Origin: Candidatus Heimdallarchaeota archaeon
Lineage (GTDB): Archaea > Asgardarchaeota > Heimdallarchaeia > Heimdallarchaeales > Heimdallarchaeaceae
Length of the DNA: 12,616 nt
NCBI GenBank assembly: GCA_021399395.1
Contig: JAAFKJ010000027.1
Span: 1-12,616, forward strand
Direction: 5' to 3'
Under the pieces are notes generated by a model, which made no database searches, was not told the origin of the DNA, and saw only the letters and a list, made by a program, of their open reading frames with translations. This document shows, piece by piece, positions 1 through 12,359 of this stretch. A program made the translations under genes and the position numbers. Numbering within the stretch: the first letter of the stretch is position 1; each line of letters opens with the position of its first letter.

Positions 1-290
1 CCTAAGGTTTCTACATCATAAATTACTTTGTTAGGGGGGAATGAAGAAAATTCTTTTTCTCGTGTCTCTATGAAAATGATGTTATGATTCTTTCTCAAAA
101 CTTTCACAGATTCTCTCCAGAGAAAAATATAGGAAATAAAACCAGAATAGTAAACGATATTCTTTGTGTCTTCATTTGGTTCATCTGCTCGAATAAAGAG
201 TACTCGCATCTTTACTCCATTAGGCAATTCGATGAACTTCTTCTCAGCTTCGTTTTCAAGATAATATTCATTCTCTGGTCTTCGAACCAT
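1..290 (-). CDS. Alpha/beta-fold hydrolase, N-terminal 96 codons (continues off the left edge; absent from the ORF track)
   Basis: Manual translation from ATG at 290: MVRRPENEYYLENEAEKKFIELPNGVKMRVLFIRADEPNEDTKNIVYYSGFISYIFLWRESVKVLRKNHNIIFIETREKEFSSFPPNKVIYDVETL(G), open to the edge. The pattern 'FIELPNG..IVYYSG...W....L.KNHNIIFIETRE..S...YDVETL' matches the start of Abhydrolase_1-type proteins (vllHG...W....L...y.vi..DlRGhG.S...y....l). The nucleophile motif lies outside the window. Confidence 0.75.
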   Translation of the reverse strand, partial: MVRRPENEYYLENEAEKKFIELPNGVKMRVLFIRADEPNEDTKNIVYYSGFISYIFLWRESVKVLRKNHNIIFIETREKEFSSFPPNKVIYDVETL

Positions 291-335
291 ATCTATGACT
301 TTTATGACTTGTATTTTTATGTTTCTATCTTAAAT

Positions 336-1334
336 TCAATCCAATCCTTTCACAATCTCTTCGGGCAAATAGACATCAAATTCACAGATAGAATCACCAC
401 TAATAACGGTCTTGACGGTTTTAACTTCTATAGGTTGATCTAATACTATTTCCCAGTAATTCTTATAATATCCTCCACTGCAATTACAGAATACTTTAGG
501 GATTTCATCAATTGTTTCATCAAGAATGGCTTCCTTAGCCCAAGGACAATGGCAGTAGTAGTAAGCTTTCATTTTATCATCTTTAGCATGGATATAGGCA
601 AGAGTCTCATGAGGGATTTTAATCACAGTTAGAATATTCCCTTTTCTGATTCCACCTTCAATACCGGGATGGTTTTTCGCATATTCAACTACCTCGTCAT
701 TAACTTCTTGTGTAAAGAAAAGTGTCCCTTCATCACGGTGTTTTTCCAAACCTGCAATGAATCTTTCTCTCTTCTGTTCCAAGAATTCATCTATATCTTT
801 GGAATTGAGAAACCGTTCTCGATCAGGTTTTCTCCATTCAGTATATGGATCACGAAGACCTTTAGCTAGGAAATTCTCACAGGTTTGTGCATCAACTTTA
901 GATTCGAATCTTGTGATTAACTTCTTAGTGTAATCTGGTTTCTTCTTGGGATCTATACCTAAGGGAGGGATTTCTGTATCTTTGAAGATTTCATCTCTAA
1001 ATTCCTTTCCGAATTCTTCTTCCAATCTTTTTGAAAAGTTTACCATTACTTCACTCCCATCAAGAACCTCTAATCCCCATACTATCAGGTTCTGATTATC
1101 TATAAAGCGACCATATCCAACTAAAACCTCATAAGTTAGACTTTTGTTTCGTTTTTGTTTTATGAGTTCTTCTGAAAAATCATAGAAATCCTCTGAATCA
1201 ATCTCTGAGAGATTCTTGTCTTTTTTAGCTATAAAAGAGTAAAAATCTTCAAGCACTTTCATTGCTTCTTCTACAACCTCCAGAGGGTTTTCTTTTTCAA
1301 TCAATCTTTGTTTAAATTTCTCTAAATCTTCCAT
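336..1334 (-). CDS. DUF6144-like Cys-rich protein (V4R-like C-terminal domain) with a helical N-terminal extension
   Basis: Long ORF (track start GTG 1343; in-frame ATG at 1334 preferred). The C-terminal pattern YYCHCPW..(x)..FCNCSGGY...WE.VLDQPIEVKTVKTVISGDSICEFDVYLP is the CxC...CxC...C arrangement I associate with DUF6144. The CDS is secure; the family call is from memory. Confidence 0.7.
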   Translation of the reverse strand: MEDLEKFKQRLIEKENPLEVVEEAMKVLEDFYSFIAKKDKNLSEIDSEDFYDFSEELIKQKRNKSLTYEVLVGYGRFIDNQNLIVWGLEVLDGSEVMVNFSKRLEEEFGKEFRDEIFKDTEIPPLGIDPKKKPDYTKKLITRFESKVDAQTCENFLAKGLRDPYTEWRKPDRERFLNSKDIDEFLEQKRERFIAGLEKHRDEGTLFFTQEVNDEVVEYAKNHPGIEGGIRKGNILTVIKIPHETLAYIHAKDDKMKAYYYCHCPWAKEAILDETIDEIPKVFCNCSGGYYKNYWEIVLDQPIEVKTVKTVISGDSICEFDVYLPEEIVKGLD

Positions 1335-2158: not shown

Positions 2159-3793
2159 ATGAAAGACCATTCAGTAGATTCAGCAAAGAAAAACGTTGAA
2201 TTGCATAAACATCTAGAATTCGGTTACAATAAACCTATATGGAAGAAAATCAGAGAAAGCGCTGTTATCTTCGGAATATTGAATTTAGTGTGGTTTTTAT
2301 TTAGAACTGGTAAGAAACCAACAAGAATCACTTATCCTTGTCAACAAATTGCTCTGACTAATGTTTCAGCTAGCGCAAGTTCACTGCTTACTACAATATC
2401 ACTTTCTGTCATTTTCGTAAAAATGCGTAAGTTCTCAAGCATCGGAAAAATAGCCGCATTAGCCCTATTAATTTTATCTCCAGTTACTTCAGTAATCATT
2501 TTACAAACAACTGCCGCAGATAATGAAATCAGTTTCCCAATCAATCCTCAACTAGCTGCAGTTGAACCTAGTTCAGACATTTTCATTGTAAATGGTAGAG
2601 AAGAAGCTCATATTGATAATCTACTGAATATGATGGGTGACAATGGTCTTGATTTCTATGAATCCATTCTAGTCGATAATAACACTAGTCCTGATGGTTT
2701 AATTTCTTCATCTGATGTTGTTCTTATCAAGAATAATTGTCAATGGGATGAGCGCGGAGGAACTAATACAGATCTGATTAAAGAGTTAATCCAAGCCATC
2801 ATTAATCATCCAGATGGTTTTACTGGGGAGATTGTTATTGCAGACAATGGTCAAGGAAGAGGAAGTATGAATTGGGGAAACAATAATGCAGAAGACAAAT
2901 CACAATCTGTTCAAGATGTAGTAAATCAGTTTTCTTCTGTGTATCAGGTTTCAGCTTATCTCTGGGACGATATAAGAAGCGATCAGGTTTCTGAGTTTTC
3001 TGAAGGAAATATGGTCGACGGATATGTTGTAAATTCAACAGCTGATGCTGAAACTGAAATCAATGTTTCTTACCCTAAATTCACGACAACATATGGTACT
3101 AAAATCAGTTTCAAACATGGGATATGGAATGGGACTCATTATGAAGAAAGATTGAAAATCATAAACATGCCCATTCTTAAATCTCATTCTTCATTTGGTG
3201 TTACAGCTGCTATGAAACACTATATGGGAGTGCAATCCCAACCTCTTACTGATGGTCACAATAAGATAGATACTGGAGGTATGGCTACTTTAATGGTAGA
3301 GCTCGGATTACCAACGCTCAATATCCTAGATGCTATCTGGATAAATGCTCATCCTGAAACTTCTTCAGCAGAAGGACCAGGAACTGATTATGATGAAGCT
3401 ACAAGGGTCAATATGATATTAGCTAGTCTAGATCCAATTGCGCTTGACTACTGGGCAGCAAAAAACATTTTACTAAATGCATCAAAGCTTAGCGGATATT
3501 CGGACCCTTATTCTTTAGATCCTGATAGCACCAATAGTGATGGGCTGAGTGAAGCTTTTGGAATCTGGCTCAATAACTCGTTAGAAGAATTCGTAAGAGA
3601 GGGTTATGTTTTTACTATTATTGAAACTCACATGAATATTTACACCAATTCCGAAGTGCTAGATATTGAAGTATTGGTCACAGAACTATCCAGATACTTT
3701 AGTCTCTCCCTAGTAGTTTCAGCATTAATCTTAACAGCTGTAGTTACCACAGTAGTATTAAACAAAAAAAGGGATGCTAAAATTCAAAAATAG
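2159..3793 (+). CDS. DUF362 domain-containing membrane-anchored protein
   Basis: 544-aa ORF. DUF362-type motifs: DVVLIKNN, TNTDLIKELI, IVIADNG, IINMPILKSH..FGVTAAMKHYMG, LNILDAIW, GPG, ILASLDPIALDYWA. The N-terminal WFLFRTGKKPTRITYPCQQ segment is flanked by hydrophobic helices. A C-terminal TM (FSLSLVVSALILTAVVTTVVL) is followed by KKRDAK. Confidence 0.8.
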   Translation: MKDHSVDSAKKNVELHKHLEFGYNKPIWKKIRESAVIFGILNLVWFLFRTGKKPTRITYPCQQIALTNVSASASSLLTTISLSVIFVKMRKFSSIGKIAALALLILSPVTSVIILQTTAADNEISFPINPQLAAVEPSSDIFIVNGREEAHIDNLLNMMGDNGLDFYESILVDNNTSPDGLISSSDVVLIKNNCQWDERGGTNTDLIKELIQAIINHPDGFTGEIVIADNGQGRGSMNWGNNNAEDKSQSVQDVVNQFSSVYQVSAYLWDDIRSDQVSEFSEGNMVDGYVVNSTADAETEINVSYPKFTTTYGTKISFKHGIWNGTHYEERLKIINMPILKSHSSFGVTAAMKHYMGVQSQPLTDGHNKIDTGGMATLMVELGLPTLNILDAIWINAHPETSSAEGPGTDYDEATRVNMILASLDPIALDYWAAKNILLNASKLSGYSDPYSLDPDSTNSDGLSEAFGIWLNNSLEEFVREGYVFTIIETHMNIYTNSEVLDIEVLVTELSRYFSLSLVVSALILTAVVTTVVLNKKRDAKIQK

Positions 3794-4540: not shown

Positions 4541-6010
4541 ATGTCTGACACAATTGAGGAAATAAAGATTATTCCTGCGTTTCCAATAACAAAAGAAGAA
4601 AGAGAATTATTATCTATAGTTGATGATAAAGAAAGCGAAATAGTAGATTTACTTCAGAAGCTAGTGCAAACTGATTCAATGAATTTGTCTGCTGATATTT
4701 TTGTTGATAAATCTGAAATTTTTGATTTTACCAAGGGTTACATGGATAAAGCTGGTTTTAAAACTGATTACTTTAAAGCTCCATTCCCTAGTGGAAAGAA
4801 AGATGAGTTTTATTATAATCTGATTGCTTCATTTGAAGGAGAATCAAAGGGAAAAACACTACAATTTAATGGCCACTTAGATATCGTTCCTTACAATCCA
4901 GACAATTGGGATGAAGACACACCTCCCTTAGGTGGAGTTATCAAGGATGGAAAACTCTATGGCAGAGGTTCAATTGACATGAAAGCTGGTGTTGCATGTC
5001 AGATGATGGCTATGAAACTACTAAAAGAATCTGGAGCAAAAATCAATGGAAAACTTCAGATGTGGTTTGTTCCTGATGAAGAAACCCATGGAGCGTATGG
5101 ATCTAAGTTCATGCCACAAAATCATTTTGACGTTATTAATGCAGATGCTACAATTATTTCTGAACCTCGAATTAGTAAACCCATGCAAAGTCCATCAATA
5201 GGAATTAGTGAAAAAGGACCTCATTGGTTTAAGTTCACTTTCCACGGTGCAGCCGGACACGGGAGCTGGCCTAAGTGGAAGAGTAATGCGATCAACAAAG
5301 CAGTTAGGTTTATAGATAATTCTAAAAAGAAACTGAAAATTCCTAAGATCAAACCTCCAGTTACTAAGAAACAATCTTTGACGATGCTTAAAGATCGATT
5401 AGGTCTTGAAGGTTTGAAGGAATTCAGAAAATTTGTTCCAGAAAAACTACCTCTTGATAAAGATAAAAAAAACACATCAAATCTATACCAAACCACTTTC
5501 AGTTTCAACCAAATTAAAGCTGGAATAAAAACTAATGTTATACCAGATACTTGCGAACTCGAAGTAGATTTTCGAACTATGCCTGGGCTAGAATCACAAG
5601 ATCTAATTGATGCAATTGTCAAATATTGTACAAAACTTGGATACAAAATCGAACTTCCTGAAAGATTTACCAACCTTCAACATAGCAAATCAAAATTCAA
5701 AGATGAACCAATCGATATAACCATGTCAATTATTACCATTGGTGAAGGTTCTGCAACTAATCCAGATTCTGAATTTGGGAAAGTTCTTCGAAGTTCATTT
5801 GAAGCGATATATGAAGTAAGTCCCATCTACTCTTTTGCTACAGGATTTTCTGATGGTGGTAATATGAGAGAAGCAGGGATGAAAGACATTTTCATTATCG
5901 GACCCGGAGGAAGAGGTGCACATAATGCAAACGAATATGCAGATATTAGCACACTAAATGACATAACGAAACTGTATCTACTTGTAGCCTATCGCTATCT
6001 TAAGTTATAA
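4541..6010 (+). CDS. M20 family metallo-amidohydrolase (ArgE/DapE-like deacylase/peptidase)
   Basis: Metal and catalytic motifs FNGHLDIVP, LYGRGSIDMKAG, VPDEE, ISEP, G.AGHGS, TNVIPD.C..EVDFR, SDG, GPG...AHNANE. No signal peptide. The specific substrate cannot be assigned. Confidence 0.92.
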   Translation: MSDTIEEIKIIPAFPITKEERELLSIVDDKESEIVDLLQKLVQTDSMNLSADIFVDKSEIFDFTKGYMDKAGFKTDYFKAPFPSGKKDEFYYNLIASFEGESKGKTLQFNGHLDIVPYNPDNWDEDTPPLGGVIKDGKLYGRGSIDMKAGVACQMMAMKLLKESGAKINGKLQMWFVPDEETHGAYGSKFMPQNHFDVINADATIISEPRISKPMQSPSIGISEKGPHWFKFTFHGAAGHGSWPKWKSNAINKAVRFIDNSKKKLKIPKIKPPVTKKQSLTMLKDRLGLEGLKEFRKFVPEKLPLDKDKKNTSNLYQTTFSFNQIKAGIKTNVIPDTCELEVDFRTMPGLESQDLIDAIVKYCTKLGYKIELPERFTNLQHSKSKFKDEPIDITMSIITIGEGSATNPDSEFGKVLRSSFEAIYEVSPIYSFATGFSDGGNMREAGMKDIFIIGPGGRGAHNANEYADISTLNDITKLYLLVAYRYLKL

Positions 6011-6067
6011 AACAATATAAGCTTAAAAGTAGAAGGAATGGTTCGAATAGTACTCAAACCGCAACAA

Positions 6068-6072
6068 GGTGA
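6068..6072 (+). promoter_or_regulatory. Shine-Dalgarno GGTGA
   Basis: GGTGA lies 3 nt before ATG 6076 and 6 nt before ATG 6079, so the second ATG may be the true start. Confidence 0.55.
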
Positions 6073-6075
6073 AGT

Positions 6076-7230
6076 ATGATGCCAGATGAACAGAGTATTC
6101 AAGAAAAAATTGAACAAATAATGCAAAACCTTCCTGGTATAGGTATGGTAGAAGGAATTCCTACACCTAATTGGGATGAAACAGGAACTATTGAGCAAGA
6201 AATGGAAAAATATAACGTTCCTGGAGTAAGTATTGCGATTGTAAATAACTTTGAAATAGAATGGAGTAAATTCTATGGTATTCAGGATAAAGAATCAAAT
6301 AAGAAAATCACTAAAGAAACTTTGTTTGAAGCAGGTTCAACCTCCAAGATGTTTACTGCTATAGCAGCGTTATCATTAGTAGAAAAAAACTTAGTAGATC
6401 TTGACGAACCAGCTAATGATTATCTAAAATCTTGGAAGATTCCAGACAATGAATTCACCGCAGAAAACCCTGTAACACTAAGACAACTTCTAACACACAC
6501 ATCTGGCATGAATCGTCCTGATTCAATGTTTGGCGTTGAAGAAGGAGAAACTGTAAATATACTCCAAGTTCTTACTGGAGAATCTACAGCTTTAAATGAT
6601 CCTGCTACAATTGAGAAAATTCCAGGTTCAGAGCATCAATATTCTAATATTGCTTACATTGTAATAGAAAAATTATTACAAGATGTACTCCAGAAAGAAA
6701 CATCAGAGATAATGAAAGAACTCATTTTCAATCCTGTAGAAATGAAGCAAAGCCTTGCTGAATATCCATCAGATGCAACAGACATTATTCTGCCTCATGA
6801 TAATGAGGGACACGTAAAGAAATCAGGTTATGTCAAAGGTACTTTTGGTTGCGCAGGATTACTATCTACTCCAGAAGACATTGCAAGATTTACTATAGAT
6901 ATAATGAAAACTTATCAAGGTAAATCAAGTAAAATTATTTCTCAATCTACTCTAAAGGAAATGCTTAAAGCTCAACCTGAATTAGACCCTGCAAAATTCT
7001 TTGGTTGGACAGGACAAGGATTAGGAGTATTTCTAATTGAAGAAGAGGGTGATTTATTCTTTACACATCCCGGAACCAACTCACCAGGAGCAGTTTGTAT
7101 GATGATAGGAAACCCAAAAACAGGTCAAGGACTAGTGATGATGTCTAATGGAATAATGGCAGAATTATTACATATTGAAATTCTATTTGCAGTATCAAAA
7201 GCATATGATTGGTCAGTCTATAATCCTTAG
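6076..7230 (+). CDS. Serine hydrolase of the beta-lactamase class C / peptidase S12 family, predicted cytoplasmic
   Basis: VPGVSIAIV, F-x-x-x-S-x-x-K (FEAGSTSK), TLRQLLTHTSG, Y-x-N (QYSN), AGLLST.EDIARF, HPG at the third motif, LVMMSNG. No signal peptide. Confidence 0.92.
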   Translation: MMPDEQSIQEKIEQIMQNLPGIGMVEGIPTPNWDETGTIEQEMEKYNVPGVSIAIVNNFEIEWSKFYGIQDKESNKKITKETLFEAGSTSKMFTAIAALSLVEKNLVDLDEPANDYLKSWKIPDNEFTAENPVTLRQLLTHTSGMNRPDSMFGVEEGETVNILQVLTGESTALNDPATIEKIPGSEHQYSNIAYIVIEKLLQDVLQKETSEIMKELIFNPVEMKQSLAEYPSDATDIILPHDNEGHVKKSGYVKGTFGCAGLLSTPEDIARFTIDIMKTYQGKSSKIISQSTLKEMLKAQPELDPAKFFGWTGQGLGVFLIEEEGDLFFTHPGTNSPGAVCMMIGNPKTGQGLVMMSNGIMAELLHIEILFAVSKAYDWSVYNP

Positions 7231-7285
7231 ATTTTCTATTAAAAAAGTTAAGGTGATTTTGATTGTTTCAGCTCGGAAATAGTTT

Positions 7286-8422
7286 CTAGGATTTCTTTCT
7301 TTTAGTTATTAAGAAATTCACCGTGAAAACAGCTACTATAACGAAGACTGAAACAGACAGAATAAGAAACGTATTTGAAAAAGCTCCACCATTCCATTCA
7401 AGGTTATCACCTTCAGCATAGTAGGTTTTAATAAAAGCTTCAATTGCTTGTCCTGTAATTTTAAGACTTTCAATATCAATATTACTAAGATCATCTGAAT
7501 GCGTGTGATGATAAGTCCAATTACTCGCAACAAAATCAATTATTAAATCAATTACAGGTATTCCAATCTCATCAAAAGCAACATGATCATCTGTAATTGA
7601 CATTTCCTTGGGATCATCGGGGAAAGCAACAGAATAACCTAGTAATTGACCTATACTAAAAATTGCTTCTTGTAGGTTAGCATCATTTCTACTTTCTTGA
7701 ACAAACTCTAAATCAAAACCACCCACCATATCTAGGAGAATAAAGCATTCAATTTCTTCAGTTGAACTATAAAAATCATCAATATTCTCAGCAAATTCTT
7801 TTGCCCCTTCAGCCCAATCCCATCCTTCCAAACCATACATCCCTCCTGAACTACCTTGGTCTTCTGCATCTAAGAATAAGAACCATACTTCACAATCTAG
7901 AAATTCTTTGTATAAATTCAAGACTCTTGCCATCTCCAATAGAACACCTACACTAGAAGCGCCATCATTTGCTCCCGGAATTGGGAGACTTTGATTGACG
8001 TAATCCTTTTCTGCTACATTTCTAGAATCCCAGTGAGAAGCCAATATTACAATGTTTTTTTTGTCTGTATTCAGTTTTCCAAGGATATTCTGACAGTTAT
8101 AGCTTGGTTGGCTTTCCTTTTGGATTGTGAAATTATGCCTAATAACCTCATCTACGCTGGAAGAAACTTGATTTCCAATCCATTCTGAACAATTGACATG
8201 ATCAGTTGTTCCAGGCACACGAAAACCAAAATCAAGTTGTGTTGAGATGTGATTAAAAGCATAAGTCGCATTGAAATCAAGAGGTAAGTCTGCATTTACA
8301 GAAGTTTTCAGAAATGTTGATTGAGAATAAGATTCTACATTTATAGCATAAGAGGTAAAAATTAGTATTATTACAAATGAAACTGCTTTTATTACCCTTT
8401 TTGTATTGATTACCAAGCTCAT
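7286..8422 (-). CDS. Exported M28-family zinc enzyme, type II glutaminyl-peptide cyclotransferase-like, with C-terminal TM anchor
   Basis: Motifs GFRVPGT, ASHWDSR, PGANDGASSVGVLLEMAR, FLDAEDQG, LLDMVG, ITDDH, YHHT.SDD. The start is reassigned to ATG 8422 (MSLVINTKRVIKAVSFVIILIFTSYA is signal-peptide-like), because the track start at 8548 overlaps the divergent gene. A C-terminal TM (FLILSVSVFVIVAVFTVNFLI) is followed by KRKKS. Confidence 0.85.
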   Translation of the reverse strand: MSLVINTKRVIKAVSFVIILIFTSYAINVESYSQSTFLKTSVNADLPLDFNATYAFNHISTQLDFGFRVPGTTDHVNCSEWIGNQVSSSVDEVIRHNFTIQKESQPSYNCQNILGKLNTDKKNIVILASHWDSRNVAEKDYVNQSLPIPGANDGASSVGVLLEMARVLNLYKEFLDCEVWFLFLDAEDQGSSGGMYGLEGWDWAEGAKEFAENIDDFYSSTEEIECFILLDMVGGFDLEFVQESRNDANLQEAIFSIGQLLGYSVAFPDDPKEMSITDDHVAFDEIGIPVIDLIIDFVASNWTYHHTHSDDLSNIDIESLKITGQAIEAFIKTYYAEGDNLEWNGGAFSNTFLILSVSVFVIVAVFTVNFLITKRKKS

Positions 8423-8532
8423 CTGAATTCCATTTGAATCTTTCTGTATTAATTCTTTTGTTTGAAATATATTTTCGAGAAATTCTGAGCAAATTCTTAT
8501 TAAGAAGCGATAAAACAAACAATAAGTAGGTT

Positions 8533-9630
8533 TTGCATGTGAGTTCAAACGATTCAGAGTATTTAATTGAGCAGTTCAGATTAGAAGAAGAGAATTTTGA
8601 CAATATTGCTAAATTAATAACAGATGTTTTTATCAATGATGAAACTGCTCTTGAAGAGGGTGCATCAATTGCTTTTTCAGAGCAAACTTTTCGAACTGTG
8701 TATGGTGCACCATCCATAGACAGAGATTTGTTCATTAGAACAATTCACAAACCAACTGATAAAATTGTGGGATTTATAGGAGCAATCCCTAGGAAACTCT
8801 CCATTGAAGGTAAAGAATACAAGTTTGCCGTACCGTCCTGGTTATGTGTTCATTCACAACATCAAAAGAAGGGGTTTGCAAAAACCATGGGAAAAATGTT
8901 ATTCGAGAAAGGAATGGAAAAGGGATATGACGGAGCTTTTTCTTTGCACGAACCAGAGCAACACGGTATTGATGTATCTTCAGCTGTTTCTAGAGATAAG
9001 GAGATCCCATTCCAAAGGATTGTTACTCTCACCAAATTTGTTATCAAAGCTTTTAATGTAGACAAAGTTGCTACAGTAGTGAGATTAAGATGGTATGAAA
9101 AACTGGTCTTCAAATTATATCAAAAATTCAAAACAATAGATTCAGAACAGATTAGAGTTTTTCAAGAAAAAGATATACCAGACATGTTTGAAATTATACA
9201 AGAACAGGTAAAAAGAAACCAATTATCTATCGTCCCTGAATTAGAAGATTTCAAATGGATGCTTACTAATCCAAATGTTATATGTGTAGTTCATGAAGAC
9301 AATAGTGGAAAAGTTAAAGGATTCATGTTAGCATGGGAGTTCTTTCTGGCTGGAATGGGGAACAAACTTCCTTTTGGTTGGTTAGATATGGTTCATATTC
9401 ATCGCTTGAATAGTGAAGAAGGCAGCAATTTAGCTAACTATTTATGCCAGATTTGTGAAGAAAAAGGATGGTATGGTTTACAGACTCCATACATACCATA
9501 TTTTGATATGAAACCTCTAAAGAAAGCCAAGTTCTTTTTCTTTAGTAAGAAAATCAACTTGGATGTATTTAATATGAGGAATGTAGAATTTCCTGAAAAA
9601 GTTGAATCATTTTACTTTGATTGGAGATAA
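8533..9630 (+). CDS. Tandem GNAT-fold acyltransferase, N-myristoyltransferase (NMT)-like
   Basis: The first domain has KIVGFIGAIP and the acyl-CoA motif A LCVHSQHQKKGFA. The second begins IRVFQEKDIPDM...VHEDNSGKVKGF. Blocks resemble eukaryotic NMT collinearly over the whole length (see findings). The start is TTG 8533 or GTG 8539 (AGGT upstream). The GNAT call is secure; the NMT-like call is less so. Confidence 0.8.
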   Translation: MHVSSNDSEYLIEQFRLEEENFDNIAKLITDVFINDETALEEGASIAFSEQTFRTVYGAPSIDRDLFIRTIHKPTDKIVGFIGAIPRKLSIEGKEYKFAVPSWLCVHSQHQKKGFAKTMGKMLFEKGMEKGYDGAFSLHEPEQHGIDVSSAVSRDKEIPFQRIVTLTKFVIKAFNVDKVATVVRLRWYEKLVFKLYQKFKTIDSEQIRVFQEKDIPDMFEIIQEQVKRNQLSIVPELEDFKWMLTNPNVICVVHEDNSGKVKGFMLAWEFFLAGMGNKLPFGWLDMVHIHRLNSEEGSNLANYLCQICEEKGWYGLQTPYIPYFDMKPLKKAKFFFFSKKINLDVFNMRNVEFPEKVESFYFDWR

Positions 9631-9642: not shown

Positions 9643-10197
9643 ATGAAAGACAGTCTAATTTCCACCCTTAAAATTGCAGAAATAAATTTCTTAATGTCAT
9701 TTAAAGAGATAAAACCAGAATTAATTACTAAACAAATCCAAAAAAACACAAACCACATTGCTTGGATTGTAGGCCATTGTATTGCACACTTTGATTGGTA
9801 TTTATCAATATATACAGGAAATAAACTGCTCTCTAAGGAAGAACTGGATTATTATGCGTACGGAGTTGAAAAAAATGAAGTTGTTACTTTTCCTTACTCT
9901 TTTTCAGAGTTAGTTGACAAACACTTGCAGATTTCCGATTCATTTTTCAAGAAACTAGAAACACTTCCAAAGGAGAAGTTTGATGAAATTCCGAGCGAAG
10001 AAAGAAAGGAAAAATTATCAGATTTGTTAAAGAGAATTACTTTACACATAATGGGACATACTGGTCAGATTGTAATTCTAAGAAGAATGTTTGATAACCC
10101 CTTTTGGGGATTTGTAGGAGGAGTTCAGGTGGAACAGAGAGAAGAATTTAGAAAAAAGTGGTTAGTCTGGTGGAAACAGAATAAACACAATTATTAG
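9643..10197 (+). CDS. DinB/YfiT superfamily four-helix-bundle protein (DinB_2-like; putative metal-dependent thiol S-transferase fold)
   Basis: NHIAWIVGHC (first His ligand) and LHIMGHTGQIVILRR (HxxxH-GQ) give the three-His pattern of DinB_2 proteins. This family is unrelated to DNA polymerase IV. Confidence 0.85.
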   Translation: MKDSLISTLKIAEINFLMSFKEIKPELITKQIQKNTNHIAWIVGHCIAHFDWYLSIYTGNKLLSKEELDYYAYGVEKNEVVTFPYSFSELVDKHLQISDSFFKKLETLPKEKFDEIPSEERKEKLSDLLKRITLHIMGHTGQIVILRRMFDNPFWGFVGGVQVEQREEFRKKWLVWWKQNKHNY

Positions 10198-12359
10198 TAA
10201 TTTAAATCAGGCTCATCTCTTGTTCTCAGATGTATCAGTAAAACCATACTACTAGGTTTTATCATCACAGTCGCTATATCCATAATCCAATCTGGCATTT
10301 CAGGAGGATCAGACTCTAGAAGCATCCTCCATTCTTCATCATTCATTATTTCGTTTTTTGGTACAGTGAATTCATAATATGAGTAAGTTCCACCTTTTGT
10401 TAGGTAAAGATTACCGTCATGATCTTGAACAATGACGTAAATTACCAGAGGGTTTCCTACTGCAATTTCCTTAGTATGTCCAGTAACTAAATCGTCAGTT
10501 GAGATGTCAGCAATTACTGCCATGGGTGTCAAGCTAGAATCCACATATGATGAACCAGGCGTAATATCAACAACAAGTTCATACAATCTTTTCCCTGTAT
10601 AAAGAATATCACGAAGATTATCTGAAGTAAGCTCTTCATTGTTAAGAATTTTTATGGAAATATCTGTTAGATATTCAAAGACATCTAAACACCTTTCAAT
10701 CCTATCTTTCAATCCAGCAGACAGTAATCCTCTTGCATCAAGACCCCCCATTAACATTTCTAGCATACTAACAAGTCTCCCATAAATCTCAGGATAAGGT
10801 TCCACATACCCATAATCTGGAAAAACAGCAGGACTAACATATCCACTATAACCATAAAGTAAGCTATCATGTTTCAGTTCAGTAAATGAACCTAAGGTAG
10901 TCATGATCTCTTTATCTATCCAAGCTTGATTCAACATGAATCCAGGATATCCTTCACTTGGAGTCTGCAACAGTGGAAATAGTGTATAAATCCACATCCA
11001 ATATAGATTTTGTACCCAAACTTCTGAATCTAGACTACCAAATTCTTCTCTTAAGTTAATTATTTGCTCCCCATAGTTAGGATAGGTGTTATTTTCTGAT
11101 TGAAGCAATTCTTCTGCACGAACGCTTCCTAATACTGAAAAGAAGTCTAATGATTGTGGAAAGTTTCTAGAATCAACAATAGGATGAAGAAGATTTTGGA
11201 AAGTATAATAGTCTGGTGTTAATCTTTGCCCCATAATTTTGAACGTAATTGGTCTTTCAACAGATGGAAAAAAGCCTTCCACATTGAGAATGTTTTCTCT
11301 CTCAATTGCGTAATTTATTGCATATGAGATTATTTCTTCAATTAGTGTGTCATTTGCTAATTGATCGTTTTGTGGAGCACCAAAACCCACCCATATATTA
11401 TACATCTCGAAAGGTGTTAAATCTAAGGTTTGACCTACATAGAATGTCGTTGGTTCATATATTTGAAACCATAGATCTTGCAAAGAAGAATTATCAAATG
11501 AAGAACATAATAATAGTGTCATAAGAGTATGTTCAGCTGCAGATTCAGAAATCAAATATCCCATTCTTCCTGAATACATTAGTGCTTGAAAATAACTTTC
11601 TAATGTCTCATTGCCAGTATAATGCCCCCTAACTTTATACTGAGCAAAATTCTCAAGATACCCTAATATTGCAGAAGAAGCTTGAATTTCTGCCATAATA
11701 TTAGTCAATTCTGTATTTACCATACTCTCTACTTCAATAGGTATCGAAGTAGTGTTATCTAAAAGATAGAGTACGACTGTTAAATATGCAACGTTCTTTT
11801 TGAGAGCTTCTTGAACAACAGGCTCAGTAATTGTCGAATTTAAGCTAATCTGGTCAGCTCGTAAATTTGTTATTAATTCCTTATACAAATCATAGAGATG
11901 CATCAATTCCAATAGTTTCAAACTGTCATCATAGAGCCAATGAAAAGTGTGAAGGCATAAATCAGTTGTAATGAAATAAGGATCAGCTTTGAACCACTCA
12001 TATATTTTATAGATGCTAGTATATCCTTCATCAACAATTACAAACCCATAATTCGATAGTGTTTCATACAGACTTGGATCTATAGTTAAGCCTTGGAAAT
12101 CAACATTACTTAAATCAGGTTCGATTTTTGAAGGGATTATAGATGGATTATAATCTAGATCCTGAGGTGAAAATGTACCGAAATATGTTGAAATATTTTC
12201 ACTAATATGTTGGTTCGCTGCTGAATCAGCATATACTCCATACGAAGACACATATCCATTTGGATCTTGGTTTGGGAGAAAAACTACCAGAGGAACAACA
12301 ATTGCAGTAATAAGCAATATGCTGAGAGCAGGTATAATTATCGAGTATTTTATTTTCAC
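10194..12359 (-). CDS. DUF3160 domain-containing protein with N-terminal membrane anchor
   Basis: 721 aa, GTG start. Motifs FITTD..LH.FH, Y.VRGHYT...LESYFQALMY.GR, GQR.TPD, NLYWMW...L.PL, LGSFTELKHDSLLY, GYVEPYPE.Y, AVIAD, GGTYSYYEF, DEEW are those I associate with DUF3160. N-terminal TM IIIPALSILLITAIVVPLVVFL. The stop codon overlaps the convergent DinB stop by 4 bp. Confidence 0.85.
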   Translation of the reverse strand: MKIKYSIIIPALSILLITAIVVPLVVFLPNQDPNGYVSSYGVYADSAANQHISENISTYFGTFSPQDLDYNPSIIPSKIEPDLSNVDFQGLTIDPSLYETLSNYGFVIVDEGYTSIYKIYEWFKADPYFITTDLCLHTFHWLYDDSLKLLELMHLYDLYKELITNLRADQISLNSTITEPVVQEALKKNVAYLTVVLYLLDNTTSIPIEVESMVNTELTNIMAEIQASSAILGYLENFAQYKVRGHYTGNETLESYFQALMYSGRMGYLISESAAEHTLMTLLLCSSFDNSSLQDLWFQIYEPTTFYVGQTLDLTPFEMYNIWVGFGAPQNDQLANDTLIEEIISYAINYAIERENILNVEGFFPSVERPITFKIMGQRLTPDYYTFQNLLHPIVDSRNFPQSLDFFSVLGSVRAEELLQSENNTYPNYGEQIINLREEFGSLDSEVWVQNLYWMWIYTLFPLLQTPSEGYPGFMLNQAWIDKEIMTTLGSFTELKHDSLLYGYSGYVSPAVFPDYGYVEPYPEIYGRLVSMLEMLMGGLDARGLLSAGLKDRIERCLDVFEYLTDISIKILNNEELTSDNLRDILYTGKRLYELVVDITPGSSYVDSSLTPMAVIADISTDDLVTGHTKEIAVGNPLVIYVIVQDHDGNLYLTKGGTYSYYEFTVPKNEIMNDEEWRMLLESDPPEMPDWIMDIATVMIKPSSMVLLIHLRTRDEPDLNY

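Follow-up and report, generated by a model that had tools for sequence, protein, structure and literature searches.

Introduction

N-myristoyltransferase (NMT; EC 2.3.1.97; Pfam PF01233 plus PF02799) occurs in eukaryotes and giant viruses, is represented by structures such as yeast 2p6e and human NMT1 3iu1, and puts a fatty chain on protein ends with its own C-terminal carboxylate acting as the catalytic base. Through protein myristoylation, Arf GTPases and many signalling proteins are directed to membranes. Other double GNAT enzymes that hold acyl-CoA in the first lobe include Eis (3sxn), an aminoglycoside/protein acetyltransferase, and HisAT/NAT16 (9emd). According to a citation in the available part of PMC12219266 (2025), NMT has been reported as limited to eukaryotes, and the same part of that paper already noted NMT-type structures in archaea and bacteria. 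Here we describe a gene carried by a 12,616-nucleotide stretch of DNA from a Candidatus Heimdallarchaeota archaeon (GenBank assembly GCA_021399395.1, contig JAAFKJ010000027.1), which is called the window and is analysed at its full length. The gene is predicted to encode a working N-acyltransferase of the "NMT type", which would use acyl-CoA and consists of two fused GNAT lobes distantly homologous to NMT, and we put the probability of this reading at about 0.62.

Homology and predicted fold

The open reading frame (ORF) at 8533-9630 on the forward strand runs for 365 codons plus a stop, with no internal stop. A database copy of the protein (P0002; 363 amino acids, 100% identical to the window protein and the source of all residue numbers used here) begins at the in-frame GTG at 8539, and the N-termini of homologues coincide with this point; therefore, the coding sequence is most likely 8539-9630 (363 amino acids). 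The parts of the gene, with the basis of each assignment, are as follows.

8533..9630, forward strand: whole ORF, NMT-type double-GNAT protein (365 codons from TTG 8533; likely start GTG 8539; stop 9628-9630)
8551..9054, forward strand: N-terminal GNAT lobe, approximately residues 5-172 (secondary structure of the model, Pfam); acyl-CoA-binding by analogy
8833..8853, forward strand: beta-strand PSWLCVH, residues 99-105, aligned with NMT INFLCVH (hhalign, column counts)
8863..8880, forward strand: QKKGFA, residues 109-114, canonical GNAT pyrophosphate motif Q/R-x-x-G-x-G/A (column counts)
8947..8997, forward strand: 17-residue stretch HEPEQHGIDVSSAVSRD (HEPEQHGID...), residues 137-153, without an NMT counterpart (hhalign gap)
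9136..9576, forward strand: C-terminal GNAT lobe, approximately residues 200-346 (conservation among homologues, model, hhalign)
9574..9627, forward strand: C-terminal tail, residues 346-363, ending ...P-x5-S-F-Y-F-D-W-R-COOH (homologue ends, register in the model)

Two alignments underlie the comparisons: one of 76 full-length homologues (A1), from which the profile of what we call the core family and all column counts out of 76 are taken, and one of 16 bona fide NMTs (A2), used for hhalign and for a hidden Markov model (HMM). When the window protein was searched with phmmer against all PDB sequences, 31 of the 32 matches at an expectation value (E) up to 10 were NMTs (best E 5.1e-9), and the best alignment joined residues 19-268 to residues 55-289 of Plasmodium vivax NMT, with the pairs DKIVGFIGAIP/NKLIGFISAIP, PSWLCVH/VNFLCVH and IRVFQEKDIP/MRLMKKKDVE. 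The core-family profile matched yeast NMT in PDB at 5.1e-13 and Eis at 0.18, and it gave no match to HisAT/NAT16 at E up to 10. Among 1.84 billion representative proteins, the same profile found 21 core-family proteins at E up to 1e-30, then prokaryotic double GNATs of approximately 350 amino acids, and then NMT candidates from E 1.6e-9; for five such candidates, Pfam confirmed true NMTs with both NMT and NMT_C. In Pfam itself, Acetyltransf_9 (2.8e-10, 40.7 bits) scored slightly above NMT (PF01233), which passed its cut-off of 25 with 39.0 bits, the match covering only positions 31-129 of the 160 in the profile and residues 18-119; a search of NCBIfam with the window protein returned no family. 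Alignment of the core-family and NMT profiles by hhalign gave a probability of 99.7% and E 3.6e-26 across 310 columns spanning both lobes (residues 17-348 of 363), ending with LDVFNMR opposite YYLYNWD. Judged by these alignments, the window protein is a genuine remote NMT homologue over both lobes.

The predicted fold leads to the same family. The AlphaFold2 model, with a mean predicted local distance difference test score (pLDDT) of 94.0 and a predicted template modelling score of 0.91, has two alpha/beta lobes, and the 42 Foldseek matches listed among ranks 1-50 were all NMTs (E from 8.4e-23, template modelling score 0.71-0.80). A VIA-align scan of 48,161 chains, independent of Foldseek, gave Z 31.3 for yeast NMT (root-mean-square deviation (rmsd) 2.8 Å, 333 residues) and Z 29.5 for C. 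parvum NMT; superpositions on NMTs lay at Z 31-32.6 and rmsd 2.7-2.9 Å over approximately 330 residues. Other folds scored lower, with MAB_4324 next (Z 22.5) and Eis (20.0, rmsd 6.1 Å), MshD (15.1) and HisAT (14.7) further down, and FemX was not among the 50 matches listed for the model. Residue 363 of the model aligned with the last residue of the NMT in 49 of 50 listed NMT superpositions (human 496, yeast 455, A. fumigatus 492, L. major 421, P. vivax 410 and C. albicans 451), and in the 50th, a three-residue C-terminal truncation (deltaC3) of human NMT1, 360 was aligned to 493. From this register in the predicted model, in which the tail ends where the catalytic C-terminal carboxylate of NMT sits, we infer that the chain end of the window protein would likewise lie at the active site.

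Three other assignments were tried and rejected. An Eis-type protein was set aside on its E of 0.18 against 5.1e-13 for NMT and on the low Z and high rmsd of the superposition, a HisAT-type protein on a Z of 14.7, an alignment that reached only model residue 348, and the missing sequence match, and a FemX-type protein on its absence from the 50 matches listed.

Motifs, C-terminal tail and proposed mechanism

The strand PSWLCVH is well kept in the core family, with P99 in 74, W101 in 68 and V104 in 72 of the 76 sequences. Position 100, which lies in the column of the Asn of the NMT strand (E)INFLCVH, is a small residue (S34/A25/G10), and the column of the Thr in the NMT strand YT(A)G is L31/F26/I10. 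In NMT, this Asn and Thr hold the substrate glycine amine, and the F-L backbone of the INFLCVH strand forms the oxyanion hole. The N-terminal FWxxQPV segment of NMT is also absent, since hhalign begins after it; in the 6 of 16 NMTs where the pattern matched, the segment lies 130-135 residues before FLCV, whereas the window protein has only 100 residues before WLCV. Because the residues that hold the glycine amine in NMT are replaced and the N-terminal segment is missing, the window protein is, as far as its sequence can tell, not a classical glycine-specific myristoyltransferase. Three sequence features of true NMTs fail in it, and the evidence at hand does not justify the name of NMT or of eukaryotic signature protein.

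The cofactor loop Q109-K-K-G112-F-A114 is kept (Q53/R20, G in 73 and A in 70 of 76) and agrees with the GNAT pyrophosphate-binding motif Q/R-x-x-G-x-G/A as worded in the available part of PMC12219266. Directly after the column of the Thr in NMT's YT begins HEPEQHGIDVSSAVSRD, which is highly conserved in the core family (E138 in 72, P139 in 65, G143 in 76 and D145 in 66) and of which residues 143-153 are a helix in the AlphaFold2 model. The C-terminal lobe is the most conserved part of the protein and carries the near-invariant long motifs PFGWLD..H and GW.GLQTPYIPYFD.KP.KKA.F.F; over the 76 sequences, 23 positions are invariant. In NMT, it is the C-terminal lobe that binds the acceptor peptide.

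The chain stops 18 residues after N345; in 11 of the 16 NMTs, the tail behind the corresponding Asn has 16. Among the 121 closest homologues, 118 end in WR-COOH (the exceptions being one LR and two aberrant ends) and 109 are 360-370 amino acids long; in the 76-sequence alignment W362 occurs in 75 and R363 in all 76. These results bear out a preliminary description of the window, made from its letters, which had proposed a full-length, probably archaeal NMT-like protein with two GNAT domains, blocks collinear with NMT from end to end, and a tail of nearly NMT length in a conserved C-terminal register. Searches by sequence and by structure alike place NMT far above Eis, HisAT and generic GNATs. 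The diverged NMT signatures that it had listed read the same in hhalign.

Based on these features, the N-terminal lobe would bind acyl-CoA through its intact Q-x-x-G-x-A loop, and the backbone of the W101-L102 bulge may polarise the thioester. The acceptor amine could be bound between the C-terminal lobe and HEPEQHGID, the stretch specific to the family. The fixed-length tail would bring the carboxylate of Arg363, the invariant last residue, into the active site to act as base, as in NMT.

The nature of the acceptor is where an unlikely but serious alternative arises, namely that the protein transfers acyl (acetyl) groups to small molecules or free amino acids in the manner of HisAT/NAT16, GLYAT, Eis or MshD, and is NMT-like only in ancestry and fold. 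Small molecules are the acceptors of most prokaryotic double GNATs that have been characterised. The cofactor loop is of the canonical acetyltransferase type, unlike NMT's own version, and the invariant Arg at the chain end might serve to bind a carboxylate or phosphate group of the substrate. Examples of such small-molecule enzymes are given in the available part of PMC12219266, where HisAT shows that they can take long acyl chains too. Against action on small molecules stand the structural scores of HisAT, MshD and Eis, all far below those of NMT, the lack of any sequence match to HisAT, and the finding that the most conserved part of the protein is the lobe that in NMT binds peptide.

Distribution and weighing of the evidence

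The closest loci among GTDB species representatives carry the label Candidatus Heimdallarchaeota, with identity of up to 83%. In a survey of 301 sampled genomes of the Asgard phylum, strong matches to the core family were found in 24 of 28 genomes of the window's own family, in 11 of 11 of a second family of the class and in 7 of 7 of a third. In a fourth Asgard family one genome had a strong match and 4 of 76 had any match, and other Asgard families gave weak partial matches or none (e.g., 0/11, 0/21, 0/19). Of the Heimdall-group genomes searched, many carry two to four matches; the window gene is the sole family copy in its own 2.8-Mb assembly. Across GTDB species representatives there are 79 loci, most of them labelled Heimdall, Prometheoarchaeota or Sigyn. 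Among the full-length matches listed, which come from archaea as well as bacteria and show 42-83% identity, the large majority have an intact frame.

The family is also carried by long bacterial contigs: Smithella (160 kb), a delta-proteobacterium (5.7 Mb) and Leptospirales (187 and 330 kb), together with further contigs labelled Neomarinimicrobiota and Fusibacter (1.25 Mb). The copies on bacterial contigs all end in DWR, and in a quick tree of 84 rows they nest within a Loki-group subclade (support 98), which suggests transfer from Asgard archaea to bacteria within the core family. One locus labelled Leptospirales (L052) has tandem same-strand family copies at 5995-7092 and 7257-8408, followed by a single-domain GNAT at 8570-8905.

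Several observations weigh against an active enzyme of the NMT type and have to be set beside the homology. The preliminary description had proposed the Pfam NMT and NMT_C profiles as a check, and only the first half of it held: the NMT profile passed its cut-off, whereas NMT_C (PF02799) scored 16.4 bits (E 0.0075), below its gathering score of 27.9. The last three residues of the model, on which the position of the carboxylate depends, are less confident, with a block mean pLDDT of 74. Moreover, the W-R side chains are invariant in the family without a parallel in NMT, whose last residue varies, so that the tail may serve beyond or instead of general-base catalysis. The patchiness, the two to four matches in many genomes and the bacterial transfer are more in keeping with an accessory enzyme than with a core system of protein modification, and a patchy, paralogue-rich and transfer-prone distribution would also suit an enzyme acting on small molecules. 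Finally, in two closed genomes of a sister genus the copy is interrupted by three in-frame stops (2 TAG, 1 TAA) or split.

The two interrupted copies belong to Heimdallarchaeum aukensis and H. endolithica (G026:C1:1011617-1012702 and G074:C1:1138304-1141232, loci L063 and L069), with the split pieces lying approximately 1.8 kb apart, and they may be pseudogenes or insertions. They are what speaks for a gene in decay, or for a pseudoenzyme whose GNAT fold is inactive or serves structure alone. We regard this as extremely improbable, given that the window copy is intact, that the cofactor motif and the 23 invariant positions are conserved over the 76 sequences, and that the exact C-terminus is kept in 118 of 121 homologues.

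Prokaryotic relatives and the link to eukaryotic NMT

The core family is Asgard-centred, has a few bacterial members and lies inside a wider prokaryotic superfamily with many bacterial members. The taxonomy of this superfamily rests on an ESM Atlas lead, on two names (Sigynarchaeota P0148 and Rubinisphaera P0271) and on loci of GTDB representatives. As leads, the nearest large ESM Atlas clusters are bacterial (Aminicenantota, Myxococcota, Acidobacteriota and Pseudomonadota), and giant-virus NMTs score 0.92. Word-based homologue searches returned a single protein for P0156 and three for alignment A3, and ten representatives of the superfamily that were looked up yielded neither names nor taxa. 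The core-family profile retrieves members of the superfamily at E 1e-29 to 1e-10. Like the window protein, these are approximately 345-365 amino acids long, have the same two lobes and, in the case of P0271, place the chain end on the NMT end. Of 78 such proteins, 35 have R and 8 have K as the last residue, and many end, as the window protein does, in an aromatic or aliphatic residue plus Arg. They differ in having only about 15-25% identity to the window protein and in lacking the HEPEQHGID and GLQTPYIPYFD motifs.

The planctomycete protein P0271, from Rubinisphaera margarita, has 352 amino acids and ends in HLLWR. Its model (pLDDT 92.2) superposes on yeast NMT with Z 32.1 and rmsd 2.6 Å over 328 residues (1..352 to 78..455) and on C. 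parvum NMT with Z 31.3, last residue on last residue as for the window model. This result agrees with the NMT-type structures in archaea and bacteria noted in the available part of PMC12219266. Its group (A4, 41 sequences) aligned to the NMT profile by hhalign with a probability of 99.8% and E 8.9e-30, slightly better than the 3.6e-26 of the Asgard family, but A4 is a more diverse alignment.

When the HMM of the 16 NMTs was used as the query, the 25 best non-NMT matches were all core-family proteins, with up to 100.3 bits (96.9 for the window protein). The median was 76.8 bits for the core family (n=125) vs. 40.7 for other prokaryotic proteins (n=77), a comparison that is biased because the others had been sampled with the Asgard profile. 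In the 84-row tree, four branches come together at a node whose order is not resolved: NMT (support 100), the core family (100), a group of four members with a Sigynarchaeota protein among them, and a set of 41 others (92). The free tree pairs the core family with the four-member prokaryotic group (support 78), and a tree holding NMT and the core family together was 1.98 log-likelihood units better than the free tree (p of the approximately unbiased test, p-AU, 0.566); therefore, an Asgard origin of NMT is neither shown nor rejected by these data. Eukaryotic NMT probably arose from the wider prokaryotic stock.

No closer NMT was found in the Asgard genomes searched. Pfam NMT matched 39 of the 301 Asgard genomes (33 over the cut-off, best 41.1 bits) and none of 14 control genomes, and nearly all of the Asgard matches lie in frames of approximately 363-398 amino acids, the size of the core family. 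A literature search for N-myristoyltransferase together with Asgard found nothing; looser searches brought up PMC12219266 and PMC11914678 as relevant.

Keeping this in mind, the claim of the preliminary description that the gene encodes a candidate eukaryotic signature protein stands only in part: the protein is a real NMT homologue, but the family is patchy in Asgard archaea, occurs on bacterial contigs and has an equally NMT-like planctomycete relative. The strongest form of that claim would be a functional archaeal N-myristoyltransferase that lipidates N-terminal glycines or nearby lysines, for instance of Arf-like GTPases, and that is the direct Asgard ancestor of the eukaryotic enzyme. 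In its favor, both sequence and fold put NMT first among the matches, the end of the chain falls in register, the NMT HMM ranks the core family first among the prokaryotic proteins sampled, the tree joining NMT and core family has the slightly higher likelihood, and the genome holds 35 matches to the Arf profile. However, none of the five best Arf-family ORFs starts with MG; by our own start calls they begin with MSF or MSM. These five (contigs C93, C145, C74, C131 and C31; loci L081-L085) have a basic, amphipathic-looking stretch after the start, and their non-glycine N-terminus is conserved. According to the available part of PMC11914678, Asgard Arfs have no recognisable myristoylation sites and bind membranes without myristoylation. 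Added to the replaced Asn and Thr, the absent FWxxQPV segment, the absence of the family from most Asgard families sampled and its presence in bacteria, the closer hhalign match of the planctomycete group and the pairing in the free tree, these points make such an archaeal NMT quite improbable.

Genomic context

The window is an entire 12.6-kb contig (C82) of an assembly of 2.8 Mb in 201 contigs that is 81.8% complete. Its G+C content is even (0.32-0.37), and its DNA recurs in sediment and cold-seep metagenomes from two studies. ARAGORN found no tRNA in the window, and RNA data for the stretch were looked for and none were found. Around the gene lie an M28 peptidase (divergent), DinB_2, an M20 peptidase, a beta-lactamase-fold protein, a methyltransferase, DUF362 and DUF3160, the following of which were mapped.

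2159-3793, forward strand: DUF362 protein, 544 amino acids, hydrophobic segments at both ends, function unassigned
4541-6010, forward strand: M20/M25/M40 peptidase, upstream of the NMT-like gene
6076-7230, forward strand: beta-lactamase-fold (serine hydrolase) protein, upstream of the NMT-like gene
7286-8548, reverse strand: membrane-anchored M28 peptidase, reaching into the start of the NMT-like ORF only when read from its far-upstream TTG
10194-12359, reverse strand: DUF3160 protein (8.6e-146), 721 amino acids, N-terminal hydrophobic stretch, function unassigned

Since homologues of the M28 peptidase have 376-384 amino acids, its start probably lies near 8420. The M28/M20 synteny is common mainly to close relatives. 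No neighbor common to the whole family was found, and none occurs in more than 10 of 56 loci, the best counts being M28 in 10, M20, DinB and Sir2 in 9 each, and a TPR protein in 8; among the bacterial loci nothing is in common beyond close kin. Consequently, no pathway can be named, which also counts against a role in small-molecule metabolism, although an M20 amidohydrolase within 6 kb in 9 of the 56 loci, the window included, would suit it. Four bacterial loci (L061, L062, L065 and L068) have the same five neighbors around the gene: a starch synthase-like glycosyltransferase, an MFS transporter, an ornithine/aspartate carbamoyltransferase, a diacylglycerol-kinase-like protein and one more. 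Their labels read Neomarinimicrobiota, "uncultured bacterium", Fusibacter and "bacterium"; some of these may be wrong, and the four loci probably represent a single lineage.

In 9 of the 56 loci, a gene for a Sir2-family deacylase (Pfam SIR2 4.8e-34) is found downstream of the NMT-like gene, at a distance of 7 bp to 4.9 kb and always on the opposite strand. The nine loci come from several subclades and show 44-79% identity to the window protein. An M20 peptidase follows the Sir2 gene in L027, L034, L039 and L043. The nine loci are given on one line.

L039:4533-5291, reverse strand: Sir2 gene; also in L043, L022, L023, L027, L030, L034, L008 and L011

Human NMT and SIRT2 reportedly carry out a lysine-myristoylation cycle. 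It is conceivable, if improbable, that the Asgard-centred family is the vertical stock of eukaryotic NMT, that it acylates protein amines (non-glycine N-termini or lysines) in archaea of the Heimdall and Loki groups, and that it forms a write-and-erase pair with the nearby Sir2 deacylase. If this were true, protein lipidation for membrane targeting would predate eukaryotes.

Comparison with known systems

Regardless of its acceptor, an intact and conserved prokaryotic family with the fold and the chain end of NMT offers a concrete start for asking where NMT came from, and it lets one test which purpose the C-terminal-carboxylate mechanism first served. The family occurs in bacteria as well as in the archaeal group nearest to eukaryotes; the Asgard link is not exclusive. 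Since the protein is small, soluble-looking and easy to express, the question is directly testable.

Among double GNATs other than NMT, the best structural match is MAB_4324, a tandem-repeat GNAT of Mycobacterium abscessus (7q3a), with Z 22.5 and rmsd 3.6 Å over 297 residues; this is approximately 9 Z units under NMT, and the alignment stops at model residue 346, leaving the tail of the window protein unmatched. In HisAT, according to the available part of PMC12219266, no tail follows the last strand, and the place of the C-terminus in the active site is taken by a Trp hairpin that belongs to lobe 2. The window protein does not resemble the HisAT/NAT16 type, which it matches only to residue 348 and at less than half the Z of about 31 seen for NMT.

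The closest known system is NMT itself, with which the window protein has in common homology over both lobes, the fold, the LCVH strand and the structural point at which the chain ends, at an identity of 14-17%. Unlike NMT, it has no N-terminal extension and no FWxxQPV segment, carries a conserved insert of 17 residues and has other residues at the Asn and Thr positions. Its cofactor loop is the canonical Q-x-x-G-x-A, unlike that of NMT, and its tail comprises 18 residues with an invariant W-R end, in contrast to the 16-residue tail with a variable last residue in NMT.

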